In this document: one piece after another, positions 25,795 to 31,365 of the stretch
How the letters are laid out: every line of letters begins with the position of its first letter
Numbering within the stretch: position 1 is the stretch's first letter
Origin: an uncultured delta proteobacterium
GTDB lineage: Bacteria; Myxococcota_A; Polyangia; Polyangiales; B10-G4
DNA: 64,000 bases
Direction of reading: 5' to 3'
Assembly: GCA_963727445.1 (NCBI GenBank)
Contig: CAVSGI010000010.1
Coordinates: 1,024,001-1,088,000, forward strand
Made by a program: the position numbers and the translations under genes
The notes under the pieces: generated by a model
Databases searched by the model: none
Told to the model about the DNA's origin: nothing
What the model saw: only the letters and a program-made list of their open reading frames with translations

Positions 25795-25992
25795 GGCGGG
25801 ACCGTATCAGCACTTCGCGATGGGGCATCGGGCATCGGCAAAACCCGTGTTACGAGCCGCGAACCGCCCCATTTGAGGACCTCGCCTCGCGTTTTCGCCT
25901 CATTTCCCCGAGAAAGGCGCCGGCGGCGCGCTGAACACACGTGTACGCCCAATAGAAGCCAAATCTTTTCGGAGTCGGTATTCTGCGTGCGA

Positions 25993-28398
25993 ATGGCCGG
26001 ACGCGACGATACCGAGCCACCCGACCTCATGGGACGGGTTCAAGAGGCTCGGGTGATTCCGACCCTCCAGCAAGTCCCGGAGACGAAGGAAGAGATTCGC
26101 CGGCGGCGGATCACCCGCATCTCCACCGTCATCGCGATCATCGTGATCGTCACCATCGCGGTCTTCGTCGGTCTTCACATCTCCCACCGCTCCGCGATCA
26201 AGGAAGCCGCGCTGCTCGCAGGCGACGATGGACGCCCCGCGTCGATCGACGCCGCCCTGGCGCTGCTCGCAGACGAAACGGATCCCGACGACCTCGCGCT
26301 TCGCGCGCGTCTTCTCGCGACGCGCGTCCTCGAAGCGAACACCGACGACACCGAGCAGGTCACCTCGCTCCTCGAACAGCTCCCGGCGGAGCGCTCGATG
26401 AACGCGGTCGTGGCTTCCACGTACCTGGCTCTGCACGCCAACGAGCTCGAGCGCGCGCAATCGGAGGCCGCGCTGATCACCGTCGGCGGCACCTACGCAT
26501 CGGAGGCCGCGCACGCGCGCGCCCTGGTCGCGGTCGCCCTCGGCAATCCGGAGGCGGCGACGGCCGAGGCCGAGCTGGCCCTCGAGCGCCGCCCGGGCGC
26601 GCCCCGTCACGCCGCTCTGTTGGCGCTGATCCTCTCGCGAAAGGGCGAGCACGAAGCCGCCTTCGAGACCCTCGACGCCGCGACCGATCCGGAGAGCTCA
26701 CCGCGGATCCGCGTGACGCGCGCGCGGATCCTCCTCGAGGCCGGCGAGGATCCCGATCGGGCCGTCACCGAAGCGGAAGCCGTGCTGGGCGAGCTCTCCG
26801 ACCAGGCCCTGTCTCCCGAGATCGCGTGGGCCCGCTTGATCCGCGGTTGGGCCGCGGCGGGGCGCGGCGACTCGCAGGCAGCGCTCGCGGACGCCCGCGC
26901 CGCCGACGAGCAGCGCCCCCCGGCGGACGAGATGTTCGTGGTCGCCCTGGCCGAGACTTATCTGAAGGCGGGCGCCCTCGACGCGGCCGCCGAGGCGCTG
27001 GACTCGGTGCAGGCGCGAACGGCACACATTCGCGGGCGGCAGGCGCAGATCCGCGCCGAGCTGGCGCTCGCCCGTGGCAACCGGGCCGCCGCCGAGGCCG
27101 CGCTGGCCGAGGCCCTGCCGGGGACGCGCTCCGACCTGATCCGCGCGCGGCTCCTCGACGCCGCCGGCGACACGGAAGAGGCGAAGGCGCTCTACGCCCA
27201 GGCGGCGGAGGTCCCGGCCTTCTTCGTGGAGGCGAGCGCGCGCCTCGCGACCCTCGAGCTCAAGAGCGGGGACGCGCAGGAGGCCTCGGCCAGATTGGCG
27301 AGCGTGCTCGAGCGGACGCCGAGCCACCCGCTGGTCGCGCCCGTGGCGGTGAGGGCGAAGCTCGCCCTCGGCGACGCCGAGGGAGCGATGCGCATCGCGA
27401 CCCGCGCCCTCGAAGACCACCCGGAGGACCCCGATCTGCTCGCGGCCCGCGCCGCGGTGGAGATCGACAGTGGCGACGACGAGGCAGCGCTGCGTTCGCT
27501 TCGGGCGGCGATCGAGCGCCGGGACGACGACCCGCATCTGCACCTCATGCGCGCCAAAGCGGCGCGTCGCGTGGGCGAGATCGCCGAAGCGCGAGAGGCC
27601 TTCGACGCGGTTCTCGAGCGCACGCCGGACAACGAGGAGGCGCTGTTGGCGGCCGCCGAGCTCGCGGTGGAGGACGCCGATCCCGAGCGCGCCGAGCAGG
27701 TGCTCGACTTGATCGACGAGCACCACCTGCATGGCAAGGAGATCGACTACGCGCGCGCGGGCTTTCTCGTCGGCTCGGCCGCGGGACAGCGGGGCTTTCT
27801 GCCGGTGCGGCGCGCCCTGGCGCGCAATCAGCGCGACCCCTTCCTGCAGAACGCCCTGGGCGACCTCTTCCTCGAAGCGGAGGAGTGGCGCGCCGCCGCC
27901 AACGCCTTCACCGCCGCGGGCAACTATGCGGAAGAGCCCGACGCGCACGCCATCCTCGGAAAGACAATCGCCCAGATCCGCGTGGGGGTCCTGGGTGTGG
28001 CGCTGTCCAATCTCGAGGCCGCGCGGGAAGCCGGCGCGGAGCTCGGCCCGGCCTTCGAGGCGCGGGTGCTGGCCGCGGAGGGTCGCGTCTTGATGATGAC
28101 CGGCGGCTGGGCGCGCGCCGAGGAGAAGGCGCGGGCCTCCATCGCCGCCGACCCCAAGTGCAGCGAAGGCCATCTGCTGCTGGCCGACATCCTTCAGCAC
28201 AAGAACGACAATTCACTCCCCGAGCTCCGTCTCGCGGCCGAGGGACGGATCCCCCAGCCCGAAGCGATGGCGCGCATCTACCTCGCCGACCAGGAGGCCG
28301 AAGACGCGTGCACCTACGCCCGGGGCTACCTCCGCGCCGCCCCCCAGGGCCGCTACGCAGAGCGTATCCGGGACCTGGCCCGGCACTGTCCGCGCTGA
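25993..28398 (+). CDS. Membrane-anchored tetratricopeptide repeat protein
   Basis: N-terminal TM, then many Ala/Leu-rich TPR-like helical repeats. Confidence 0.8.
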   Translation: MAGRDDTEPPDLMGRVQEARVIPTLQQVPETKEEIRRRRITRISTVIAIIVIVTIAVFVGLHISHRSAIKEAALLAGDDGRPASIDAALALLADETDPDDLALRARLLATRVLEANTDDTEQVTSLLEQLPAERSMNAVVASTYLALHANELERAQSEAALITVGGTYASEAAHARALVAVALGNPEAATAEAELALERRPGAPRHAALLALILSRKGEHEAAFETLDAATDPESSPRIRVTRARILLEAGEDPDRAVTEAEAVLGELSDQALSPEIAWARLIRGWAAAGRGDSQAALADARAADEQRPPADEMFVVALAETYLKAGALDAAAEALDSVQARTAHIRGRQAQIRAELALARGNRAAAEAALAEALPGTRSDLIRARLLDAAGDTEEAKALYAQAAEVPAFFVEASARLATLELKSGDAQEASARLASVLERTPSHPLVAPVAVRAKLALGDAEGAMRIATRALEDHPEDPDLLAARAAVEIDSGDDEAALRSLRAAIERRDDDPHLHLMRAKAARRVGEIAEAREAFDAVLERTPDNEEALLAAAELAVEDADPERAEQVLDLIDEHHLHGKEIDYARAGFLVGSAAGQRGFLPVRRALARNQRDPFLQNALGDLFLEAEEWRAAANAFTAAGNYAEEPDAHAILGKTIAQIRVGVLGVALSNLEAAREAGAELGPAFEARVLAAEGRVLMMTGGWARAEEKARASIAADPKCSEGHLLLADILQHKNDNSLPELRLAAEGRIPQPEAMARIYLADQEAEDACTYARGYLRAAPQGRYAERIRDLARHCPR

Positions 28399-28440
28399 GG
28401 CCGGCGCACTGATCTGCACCGGGCCCGGGCCCCAAGATCC

Positions 28441-29166
28441 CGAGGGGAGGGTCCCCCTCGTCGCCTCGCGCTTCGCGCTCGGCTCTCACGTCTGCCCGGT
28501 CGCGGTGTTTGAGACTGACCCAGAGGGTCCATCTCTGAATGGCCCGGGACCTCTGCGGGCAGCGTTCGCACCCCTCGCGGGCGCCTGACGGCGCCCGGGT
28601 CGCGTTGCTTCGCAACGCTCCACTCCGTCCGGGTTACCGAGGAGCGCTTGATGGGGACGGTCTACACTTTTCAACTTTCGCTGGGTCGCGCGCATGCGGG
28701 ATAGCGCTTGATGGGGACGGTCTACACTTTTCAACTTTCGCTGGGTCGCGCGCATGCGGGATGAAACCCGGGAGGGCGGGGCGAAAGTTGAAAAGTGTAG
28801 ACCGTCCCCGTTAGCCCGCATGCGGGATGGAACCCGGGCGGGCGGGGCGAAAGTTGAAAAGTGTAGACCGTCCCCGTTAGCCCGCATGCGGGATGAAACC
28901 CGGGCGGGCGGGGCGAAAGTTGAAAAGTGTAGACCGTCCCCGTTAGGCCTGGTCCCCGTTAGGCCTGTCCCCGTTAGGCCTGCAGGAACCGGGGCGGCCG
29001 CCAGGGCCGCGACCCGGCGCCGCAGGCGCCGAGGGGGGCCGAACGCTGCCCGCACACCATCAGATCATTGCCAATGAGTATGGCGAGCCCATCTGTTCCA
29101 CACCGGGCGGGCAGTCGTGAGAGCCGAGCGCGAAGCGCGAGGCGACAGGGGGGGCTTGTCCCCCGC
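28441..29166. repeat. Two inverted copies of a ~180-nt multi-hairpin scaffold, each with a distinct 45-nt insert
   Basis: 39-nt IR 28460-28498 / 29108-29146 (1 mismatch); 15-nt IR 28554-28568 / 29040-29054; inserts 28509-28553 and 29055-29099. Confidence 0.85.
28653..28980. repeat. REP-like array of 29-bp core ggggacggtctacacttttcaactttcgc (2 direct + 3 inverted copies)
   Basis: Copies at 28653 and 28713 (60-bp period) and reverse complement at 28781, 28847, 28913 (66-bp period), then gtccccgttaggcct x3. Confidence 0.92.
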
Positions 29167-29534
29167 GGCTCACGATTGGTCACATTTTCCGCGGCGATGC
29201 CCGGCCCTGACGGACGATTCGGCCGAGGCGAGCGCCCGCCTCCCGGGTTCCGTCCGTCCCGACGGACGATTCGGCGGGGACGGACCGCTCTCGGAGGCAA
29301 CGGGCGATGGCTCGGACTCCGGTCCGCGTGGGCGGACCGCTCTCGGAGGCAACGGGCGATGGCTCGGACTCCGGTCCGCGTGGGCGGACCGCTCTCGGAG
29401 GCAACGGGCGATGGCTCGGACTCCGGTCCGCCGCGCGCGCGCATTCCTCCCGACCTGCGGTACCCCGCGCGCTCTGCGGTACCCCCTGCGCGCTCGATGC
29501 ATCTCGAGCCCGGAGAAATGACCAATCGTGAGCC
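29167..29534. mobile_element. MITE-like element with 16-bp terminal inverted repeats and internal 52-bp tandem repeats
   Basis: ggctcacgattggtca (29167-29182) / tgaccaatcgtgagcc (29519-29534); 52-bp units start at 29281, 29333, 29385. Confidence 0.65.
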
Positions 29535-29579: not shown

Positions 29580-31190
29580 TCAGCCGTCGACGAAGAAGAC
29601 GCCCCTCAGATCCTCGGTGGCGGAGATGGCCGTCGCGGTGCCACCGCCGGGCATCCGGAAGGACGTCGCCCGGAACTGGTAGTACATCCCCGGCGTCATC
29701 GGACCCGCATAGTCGACGGTGACGGTGTCCATCCCGCTCACCCCCGGGACCATCATCTCCCACACCACGTCGCCGTAGGCGTTGAAGACCTGGACCTGGT
29801 AGTACTCCTCGCTCGAGTCGTCGGCCCACTCGAGAGTGGGCGGCGCGGTGACCGCCTCGGGTAGATCGCGTCCCGGACCCACGACGTCGAGGGCCTCGGT
29901 CACCTTGAAGGAGTCGGTGAGGGTCACCATCGGCCCGTCCGGCCCGGGGAGCTCGACGGTGACGATGGCGGTTCCCGCGATCAGCTGGTCGGGGTCCCGC
30001 ACCAGGCCATCGTTCTCGAAGCCGGCGAGAACCACGTAGCGACCATCGGGGATCCCCTCGATCGTCCAGCCGCTCTGGACGTCGGGCGGCCCGTCCCGGG
30101 GCGCGCGCAAGCCCGGCGGAAGCGAGCCACGTCCCAGCACCTCGTCGAAGGTGCTCTCCACGACCAGGACCACGCTGGTCCGCAGGTCCGCCGATGCGTT
30201 GACGATCTGAATCGTGCCCGTGAGCGTGTTGGTCTCGGCCATGGAATCGACGAGGTCGACCCCTTCGAGCGGCGCTCCGGCAACGGTGACGTCGGCCGGG
30301 GTGAGCTGGAGATCGGCGGCATAGCCGCGCACTTCGTAAGCGCCGTCGGTGACGTTGAAGATGGTGTAGGCGCCGCCCAGGTCGGAGATGCTGCTGAAGG
30401 CGCCGCCATCGCCCTCGGCCACCACCAGGACACCGGCCTCGCGACCTTCGGCCACGACGTGACCGGAGATGGTCGCCCTCGGCGTCGTCAGGTCCTCGAG
30501 GGGGATCAGCACGATCTCCGTCAGCGTTCCCTGAATCACCCAGGCGTCGTCCATCTCCACCGTCTCCGAGGTGTTGATCGGGAGCGCGGTGCGGATGCCG
30601 CCAGGGAAGGTCTGATAGCCGTCGGCGCTCGACCGCAGCGTGTAGGCCGCGTCGACGGGGCTCCCGTCCATGTTGCGGAGGGTGGGGAGCTCGAGGACGT
30701 AGTTGCCCATCGCGTCGCTCACGGCCACGTCCGTGACCGCGACCGGCAGGTCGTCGAGCGCGATCACCTGCGCCCCCTCGATGGGAGAGGAATCGGTGGC
30801 ATCGCGGACGAGCCCGCGGATCTCGAGCGGCCGCTCGCAGGCGTAGCTCATGTCCACCAGCTGCACGCAACGCAGGGCCGGGTCACAGCCGTCCTCCGCC
30901 GGATCGCAGGCCGCACCTTCGGGGAGGTAGCAGGTGCCCGTGGTGTTCCCCATGTCGTCGGTCATCGACACACAGACCGCGTCCCCTTCGCACCAGGCCA
31001 TGTCGGCCTCGGGGTCGCACATACCACCGACCGGGACCTGGCAACGGGCTTCCCCGTCGCTCGCGGCGGCGCAAACCAGGCCCTCGTCGCAGGCGTTGGT
31101 GCTGGCCACGTCACAGGTGTCACCCGCGCTGCCGCTGCTGCTGCACCCCGCGACCGCACCCACGATGAACAAAGAAAGAAAGAGCTTCAC
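29580..31190 (-). CDS. Cys-rich lipoprotein with carboxypeptidase regulatory-like (Cna-B-type) domains
   Basis: GTG start with GGAGG; lipobox VAGC; GLVRDATDSSPIEGAQV. Confidence 0.8.
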   Translation of the reverse strand: MKLFLSLFIVGAVAGCSSSGSAGDTCDVASTNACDEGLVCAAASDGEARCQVPVGGMCDPEADMAWCEGDAVCVSMTDDMGNTTGTCYLPEGAACDPAEDGCDPALRCVQLVDMSYACERPLEIRGLVRDATDSSPIEGAQVIALDDLPVAVTDVAVSDAMGNYVLELPTLRNMDGSPVDAAYTLRSSADGYQTFPGGIRTALPINTSETVEMDDAWVIQGTLTEIVLIPLEDLTTPRATISGHVVAEGREAGVLVVAEGDGGAFSSISDLGGAYTIFNVTDGAYEVRGYAADLQLTPADVTVAGAPLEGVDLVDSMAETNTLTGTIQIVNASADLRTSVVLVVESTFDEVLGRGSLPPGLRAPRDGPPDVQSGWTIEGIPDGRYVVLAGFENDGLVRDPDQLIAGTAIVTVELPGPDGPMVTLTDSFKVTEALDVVGPGRDLPEAVTAPPTLEWADDSSEEYYQVQVFNAYGDVVWEMMVPGVSGMDTVTVDYAGPMTPGMYYQFRATSFRMPGGGTATAISATEDLRGVFFVDG

Positions 31191-31365
31191 GACCACCTCC
31201 CACCCGGGATCCTCCCAAATTTTGGTGAGGCAAACCACACAACACTTCGGCGCCCGGGGTACAGATCCTGGAAACTGGGCGGGAATTGGCGGTTTTTCTA
31301 GCTGCGCCGCCATCTTGCATCCGGCCCCGCCCTACGTTAAAGAACCGGCGCGTTCGAGGGGAGCG

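Follow-up and report, generated by a model that had tools for sequence, protein, structure and literature searches.

A dispersed repeat with two unlike folded arms, probably REPIN/BIME-like, in an uncultured Polyangiales genome

The intergenic region described here, from a 64,000-nt stretch of DNA (the window), is one damaged copy of a dispersed repeat that we call A/B. When intact, the element runs from a REP-like hairpin through arm A, a short linker and the inverted arm B to a second REP-like hairpin. It is probably a non-autonomous REPIN/BIME-like element with two unlike folded single-stranded DNA (ssDNA) arms, and a Y1-HUH (RAYT-like) enzyme would mobilize it in trans. In the mechanism that we propose, each arm would fold while the DNA is single-stranded; the outer tagged hairpins would be bound by a TnpA-REP/RAYT-superfamily Y1-HUH enzyme with its gene at another place, which would cut and rejoin the strand close to the TTAA-like ends and thereby copy the element into new intergenic sites. 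The 55-57-nt core of each arm would serve as an inherited end-specific domain, with a few unconstrained patches, that distinguishes the ends or spaces the hairpins, and not as a reloaded guide. The initial annotation of the region had offered a REPIN/MITE-like family with an enzyme in trans as one of its readings, and this reading is supported by the dispersed copies, the tagged inverted ends and the lack of a mobility gene beside the loci.

The annotation had also described two opposite-strand copies of one scaffold between convergent genes, and a covariance model built from 13 arms places both of them (Table 1). The window does contain the hairpins and the ctgcccg/cgggcag stem, as well as the swap between gcgttg/caacgc and gcggcc/ggccgc, and the two 45-nt inserts are indeed lower in GC, at 60% and 51% G+C versus ∼69% in the genome assembly (G000; 9.47 Mb, 69% G+C, 86% complete). 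The window copy is without both outer hairpins: that of arm A is degenerate, and unrelated sequence stands in place of that of arm B. The internal loop in hairpin 3 of arm A is one that we take to form tandem G.A pairs and to be stable. With regard to the neighboring repeat block, its perfect 16-nt inverted repeat (29167-29182 / 29519-29534) is what takes the place of the arm B outer hairpin here, and the 52-nt tandem unit (29271-29431) is present at three loci and resembles, by eye, repeats beside a HUH-like ORF at G000:C27:412.3-413.0 kb.

Table 1. Features of the A/B copy and its surroundings, in window coordinates
Feature	Position	Strand	Remarks
Upstream host gene, TPR-repeat protein	25918..28398 (start codon not fixed)	+	Pfam TPR matches
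Arm A of the element	28414..28626	+	Covariance model match, 171.7 bits
Hairpin 3 of arm A	28463..28483	+	On the opposite strand, C(GAA)G triloop and GA/GA tandem internal loop
Central stem of arm A	28488..28565 (28488-28498 pairs with 28556-28565)	+	10 invariant pairs
A-type core, 57 nt, holding the annotated 45-nt insert	28499..28555	+	Two variable patches
Inner hairpins 5 and 6 of arm A	28580..28618	+	Module common to arm B and family D
Beginning of the short A-B linker, interrupted in the window by the M cluster	28619..28642	+	Uninterrupted at the C20, C21 and C27 loci
Repeat M cluster, secondary insertion	28643..28982	.	Five copies (++---)
Arm B of the element	28986..29189	-	Covariance model match, 179.7 bits
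B-type core, 55 nt, holding the second annotated insert	29053..29107	-	No indels among 8 copies
Adjacent unrelated repeat block	29167..29534	.	16-nt perfect inverted repeat (29167-29182 / 29519-29534) around three 52-nt tandem units (29271-29431)
Downstream convergent host gene, carboxypeptidase-regulatory-like domain	29580..31313	-	

The two copies visible in the window belong to a much larger set, as the genome holds, over 14 loci, 15 full arms (7 A and 8 B) together with 5 partial ones. Two full arms occur at 5 of the 14 loci, with A facing B in all 5; the other loci are truncated or single. The uninterrupted element (on C20, C21, and C27) is ∼445 nt long with a linker of ∼35 nt, and each arm spans ∼205-215 nt with 5-6 helices, such that the outer hairpin alone is REP-sized. 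The annotation had suggested looking for genes linked to the other copies. Among 26 ORFs beside 13 other A/B loci, picked with a simple ORF caller, and the two window ORFs, there is no transposase or integrase family; the neighbors are unrelated host genes with no protein family common to them. Many copies are truncated or invaded by a second repeat, M, which suits a selfish repeat. No orientation bias of A/B against base skew or replication strand was detected, the skew signal itself being weak. At two loci (L169 and L170), the outer ends of both arms have locus-specific letters in common, which, together with short tandem duplications of the terminal hairpin at L169, suggests conversion between inverted arms.

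Intact copies are mostly bounded on both sides by TTAA-like words, TTAATTG...CAATTAA, the word being palindromic. Such ends are also what one would expect of a MITE of a DDE-type insertion sequence, with imperfect terminal inverted repeats of ∼200 nt, a TTAA target duplication and the hairpins as passengers, and the ability of the whole element to fold into one long rod suits this explanation as well. We nevertheless regard it as unlikely, given that double-stranded recognition of terminal inverted repeats needs neither strand-specific GNA loops nor compensatory changes, that no transposase gene with A/B ends is found among the genome-wide end-motif matches, and that the homologous family D (see below) forms direct tandem arrays and not inverted pairs.

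The 340-nt center of the annotated interval (28643-28982) is absent from the initial annotation as a unit of its own; it belongs to the separate repeat family M, whose 154 copies in the genome form 53 clusters. M is dispersed as dimers and clusters, matches the GGGGWSAS consensus at 7 of 8 positions, and flanks, in inverted order (++++--), a PF01797 Y1-HUH (TIRYT-like) gene at G000:C9:566-568 kb (L133: 566.2-567.8 kb). Inverted GGGGWSAS-type repeats flanking a Y1 gene constitute the TIRtron arrangement (PMC3733652), and TIRtron/TIRYT is TnpA-Y1 subclass 2.1 (PMC6006769). The likeness to TIRtrons belongs to M, with its inverted placement around a Y1 gene, its dimers and its clusters; the arms of A/B differ in being multi-hairpin structures that do not flank the Y1 gene of M. 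M lies within 8 of the 14 A/B loci versus 34 of 1862 intergenic regions of at least 300 nt (Fisher p = 1.4e-11, with rough region calling), and it is best read as a later insertion into A/B. Contigs in which the A end is joined to B over a 24-32-nt linker without M were found in two of four public runs examined, at a depth of 2-4 and with placement by 80% likeness, another family locus being a possible source. DNA nearly identical to that of the window is present in wetland and salt-marsh runs. We also observe that M is often located at the truncation of an arm, as though one repeat family were targeting another. A C-rich shift at silent sites has reportedly been seen beside RAYT repeats. Here, the C fraction at fourfold-degenerate sites within 150 nt of the gene end is 0.68 beside M-only loci (48 regions) and shows the same shift, to 0.62, beside a second TIR family (25 regions), versus 0.48 in controls; beside A/B the shift is weak or absent (0.57 and 0.49), which we count against the RAYT reading.

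The most striking claim of the annotation was that the scaffold carries interchangeable inserts of fixed length, as a programmable guide or a cargo carrier would. Core identity is 65-89% among A arms and 60-100% among B arms but 35-57% (mean 44%) between A and B, which indicates that the inserts are inherited with the arm type. The two inserts of the window are unrelated in sequence, as had been stated, since A-B identity is near the shuffle level (mean 44% versus 38% ± 6%). Their equal length of 45 nt depends on the cut position, because the cores between the stem halves are 57 and 55 nt; what does stand is that length is fixed within an arm type, the stem-to-stem core measuring 56-57 nt in A and 55 nt in B genome-wide. 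The B core has no indels in 8 copies, and an invariant 5-mer separates its two variable patches; 7 of the 8 B cores are distinct and two are identical, and the same or nearly the same patches recur in several B arms from different loci. The A core has variable patches of 6 nt and ∼14 nt. Core length is thus constant per subfamily, yet short patches vary around invariant words. The annotation had taken variation from copy to copy as its prediction and identical inserts as evidence to the contrary, and near-identity within each arm type is largely what the other copies show. By eye, the cores were dropped as coding sequence on account of stops and length changes that break the frame, and an inner stem within the A core was rejected since its pairing is broken and compensation is absent.

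A search for targets gave no above-chance match. Between a core and its own 60-nt flanks, the longest common word averages 6.7 nt versus 6.5 nt for foreign flanks (15 arms, with rough flanks and the single longest word scored), and the longest match in the masked own genome is 14.4 nt for the 14 distinct cores as well as for 84 shuffles. BLAST of the two window cores against 50,697 phage records returned a best E of 1; the phage and host comparisons that the annotation proposed yield nothing for a programmable scaffold, within tests that are blind to split guides of 7-9 nt. In IS200/IS605 (IS608) and REP elements, short base pairing links a guide to the cleavage site. It is accordingly conceivable that the variable core patches of A/B guide a Y1-HUH enzyme through base pairing with DNA of the target or cleavage site, as the fixed core length with varying patches in both A and B and the two variable ∼18-nt strands in the internal loop of family D would suggest. 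We judge such a DNA-level guide improbable, because the cores show no excess match to their own flanks, B arms at different loci carry the same or near-same patches, and a family in another genome (G023) has a plain 27-nt hairpin in that slot.

The folding of the arms points to DNA. Among 45 perfect triloop hairpins in 15 arms, 28 are of the form C(GNA)G on the strand opposite the one read in the annotation and 0 on the annotated strand, against a C(GNA)G background of 7% for both strands combined (0.8 Mb). According to PMC13037366, GNA alone among the 64 triloops gives a DNA mini-hairpin; the GAAA form has a far less stable RNA counterpart, which melts at a far lower temperature. By analogy, the strand-specific C(GNA)G loops of the arms are a putative DNA mini-hairpin signature. 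Covariation of the stems between copies, which the annotation had reported, is present to a limited degree: 5 of 34 pairs change on both sides among 13 related arms, mostly as the single A/B split, and the central stem is invariant at 10 of 10 pairs. The shuffle control overstates covariation because the arm sequences are kin. Folded as RNA, arm A has a z-score of -2.69 and arm B of -0.52, and Rfam gives no family at cut-off, the matches to mir-4436, mir-2576 and atpB being far below cut-off and all in the M cluster. Selection on RNA or ssDNA structure had been proposed; the ssDNA half is supported by the strand-specific GNA loops.

In IS110 bridge RNAs and other guide RNAs, a structured scaffold holds internal variable segments of fixed length. 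The annotation had favored a reading of this kind, with each arm transcribed and its loop reprogrammed per copy, and a conserved scaffold around a fixed-length variable core, some covariation and 8 IS110-family matches in the genome are compatible with it. We find it extremely unlikely: the cores are inherited by arm type and have no targets, the loops are of the DNA type, no Rfam family is reached at cut-off, and none of the covariance model matches near the IS110 loci falls below E 0.16, which leaves A/B without a link to them. The annotated strand, moreover, reads cUUCGc, and the RNA tetraloop form is cUUCGg. The skipping-rope, drum, and DUF3800 RNA motifs (PMC5737381) are likewise orphan structured motifs found via covariation; A/B differs from them in having no Rfam match and no common neighboring protein family. 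A/B provides no evidence for a new RNA-guided system. Likenesses to group II intron domain V, attC and skipping-rope were considered and dropped, and a link to IS91 genes was not found, the weak model matches at IS91 loci lying inside the coding region.

We therefore return to the REPIN/BIME-like reading. A GTAG/GTGG tag precedes the outer hairpin by 2 nt in 7 of the 12 arms whose outer hairpin is recognizable (15 examined), the other 5 being without it; because the copies are related, this counts as one ancestral feature. It agrees with the definition of REPs in PMC6006769, in which the tag is 0-2 nt from the stem and tag plus short stem take up 10-13 nt. In A/B the tag shares its strand with the TNC loops, opposite the GNA loops, which we count against the HUH reading. 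In the portions of PMC6006769, PMC3733652, and PMC8266576 that describe GTAG-tagged REPs, REPINs and BIMEs with RAYT/TnpA-REP, the features common to A/B are dispersed intergenic copies of species-specific sequence, inverted tagged end hairpins, mosaic clusters with other repeats and Y1-HUH genes in the genome. The same portions give REPs a size of 20-65 nt and a simple or bulged hairpin, well short of an A/B arm of ∼205-215 nt with 5-6 helices, and A/B differs from REPINs in that its arms are unlike each other by the 55-57-nt core, with the tag intact in 7 of 12 outer hairpins. Nor is a REPtron with exact A/B ends found, as none of the four PF01797 genes in the 86%-complete assembly is flanked by whole arms. 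Because the arms exceed the REP size and a REPtron is unproven, we do not class A/B as a member of the REPs or REPINs; its substrates are far more elaborate than classic REPs. The spread of REP-type repeats is itself described as poorly understood (PMC8266576). Our literature search found no paper on REPs, REPINs or RAYT with a transposase in myxobacteria, although related repeats may figure in the REP and TIR tables of PMC3733652 and PMC6006769, and absence from print is not established.

Non-autonomous derivatives of IS200/IS605 elements have unlike left and right ends that fold as ssDNA. A/B resembles them in its two non-identical structured ends in fixed relation, a predicted ssDNA substrate for a Y1 enzyme; it differs in that its ends are inverted homologues of ∼200 nt and that the ∼35-nt linker holds no evident tnpA/tnpB remnant.

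With regard to the enzyme, the genome has four PF01797 genes and a fifth HUH-like ORF, several of them flanked by their own dispersed repeats. The best candidates are two related RAYT-like genes, 83% identical, at G000:C9:168.5-169.2 kb and C10:985.5-986.2 kb, which we offer as a lead; both proteins score under the NCBIfam RAYT cut-off (46 and 51 versus 80 bits). It is equally plausible that a canonical RAYT is missing from the 86%-complete assembly. The C9:168 kb gene is enclosed by a 155-nt inverted repeat, and a hairpin-plus-C-linker motif, written post hoc after viewing the arms and flanks, has 10 matches genome-wide, namely, 8 A/B arms and the 2 inverted flanks of this gene. The covariance model gives E values of 0.03 and 0.07 on these flanks, which are without the GTAG tag, and no A...B pair encloses an enzyme gene among the copies. 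The candidate protein is matched in 36 of 151 genomes, a count that includes weak matches, its own genome and G122. GNA hairpins number 19 in 83 kb near the homologue genes versus 15 in 104 kb further off (72 loci, some duplicated), 40 further homologue loci gave no significant covariance model match, and most homologues are without A/B-like structured flanks. With no fewer than four Y1-HUH genes, numerous repeat families and a strong enrichment of M within A/B, the genome offers a natural set of enzyme-substrate pairs.

Several observations attach to these enzymes. The fifth ORF (G000:C27:412.3-413.0 kb), an HUH...Y ORF missed by the PF01797 search, has long tandem arrays of ∼52-nt units on both sides. 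Long repeats flank genes of the same RAYT-like branch at L183 (228-nt inverted, 81%), L199 (183-nt direct, 80%), and L185 (146-nt inverted, 79%), and some genomes have at least 18 matches to the candidate protein.

Two further families have the layout of A/B. Family D, a third subfamily in the same genome, comprises ∼30 units of ∼210 nt in direct tandem arrays. Its center consists of a stem and two variable ∼18-nt strands, forming an internal loop, around a hairpin, and its inner hairpin module is that of A/B; the model matches 8 of the units at full length (25-39 bits), and these lie in 4 of the 14 listed D loci. Family D loci include L153, L154, L156, L157, L158, and L161-L163 (e.g., G000:C21:133.7-134.4 kb). 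The second family occurs in G023, a 54%-complete genome of another taxonomic family, where a repeat has the A/B module order by eye, with the 27-nt hairpin in the central slot. It is a dispersed mosaic hairpin family with 78 matches (L209, L254, L319-L338); the covariance model found its units not significant, and a separate, near-identical inner module in G023 gave E 2e-4, which is not independent. The only two PF01797 matches of G023 are the closest homologues of the candidate enzyme (57% identity); one lies directly downstream of a repeat array and the second copy 2.2 kb from another array. The two copies of this G023 gene are otherwise bordered by long low-complexity C-rich tracts.

One could extend these likenesses and suppose that A, B, D and the G023 family form a modular class of folded ssDNA with a swappable center (55-57-nt cores, 18+18-nt internal loop, 27-nt hairpin), served by an uncharacterized myxobacterial Y1-HUH branch, with the variable patches as DNA guides that set the choice of target or partner end. 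We hold out little likelihood for this combination. If variable patches did steer target choice, A/B would represent a naturally retargetable DNA-guided ssDNA transposase and a compact programmable cutter-joiner of ssDNA.

Full-length homologues of A/B were not found outside its own genome in 149 genomes of the order, nor was any homologue found in the same-genus genome G001, and the exact patterns used elsewhere miss diverged relatives. The covariance model gave weak matches in 6 of the 149 genomes (15 candidates scored per genome), of which G023 and G112 have partial modules and the others do not look homologous. An exact-pattern scan yielded 75 matches in genome contigs and 9 in viral contigs, none of which proved on inspection to be surrounded by the scaffold; the hairpin-3 pattern gave 2 metagenome and 4 viral matches, all unrelated, and the inner-module pattern 0 viral matches. 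A pattern scan of 400 other genomes of the phylum gave a lone match in one genome, and BLAST in 60 relatives gave 3 marginal matches that are not homologues. A plasmid BLAST reached a best E of 0.06. Orthologues of the upstream TPR gene in G001 and G023 are without the element past the stop, but their downstream sequence is non-syntenic and a clean empty site is not available.

This narrow distribution bears on whether A/B serves its host as a folded DNA site, such as a primer-synthesis signal, a gyrase or nucleoid-protein site or a two-way terminator, with recombination and no dedicated transposase behind its spread. Convergent gene pairs flank 8 of 15 classed intergenic regions, a set that includes one false locus, compared with 451 of 2218 controls, and phage and plasmid priming sites carry GNA mini-hairpins (PMC13037366), both of which suit a host site. 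We think such a function improbable for an element so restricted in lineage, for which neither the 149 genomes of the order nor G001 yielded a full-length homologue, and of which many copies are truncated or M-invaded as befits a selfish repeat.

Other folded repeats accompany A/B. A ∼190-nt module that combines GNA hairpins with purine/T-rich linkers often lies directly against the TTAA end, outside arm B at L170, L172, L173, and L175 and outside arm A at L167, L168, and L171; it is also found solitary, with 22 strict motif matches at 15 loci. AGATG/TGATG words recur on the same strand in B cores, D linkers and repeat M, with a 9-10-nt spacing in the B cores and D linkers. At L219 (G112:C16), three hairpins like the first three of A/B/D lie ∼300 nt before the apparent start of a CRISPR repeat array. 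Further GNA-hairpin families include one in tandem units of ∼105 nt (42 copies, 21 loci), a palindromic one of ∼50 nt (184 motif matches, 16 loci) and smaller ones, with sites at G000:C2:91.7 kb, C6:79.1 kb, C21:569.3 kb, C25:58.6 kb, C10:249.9 kb, and others.
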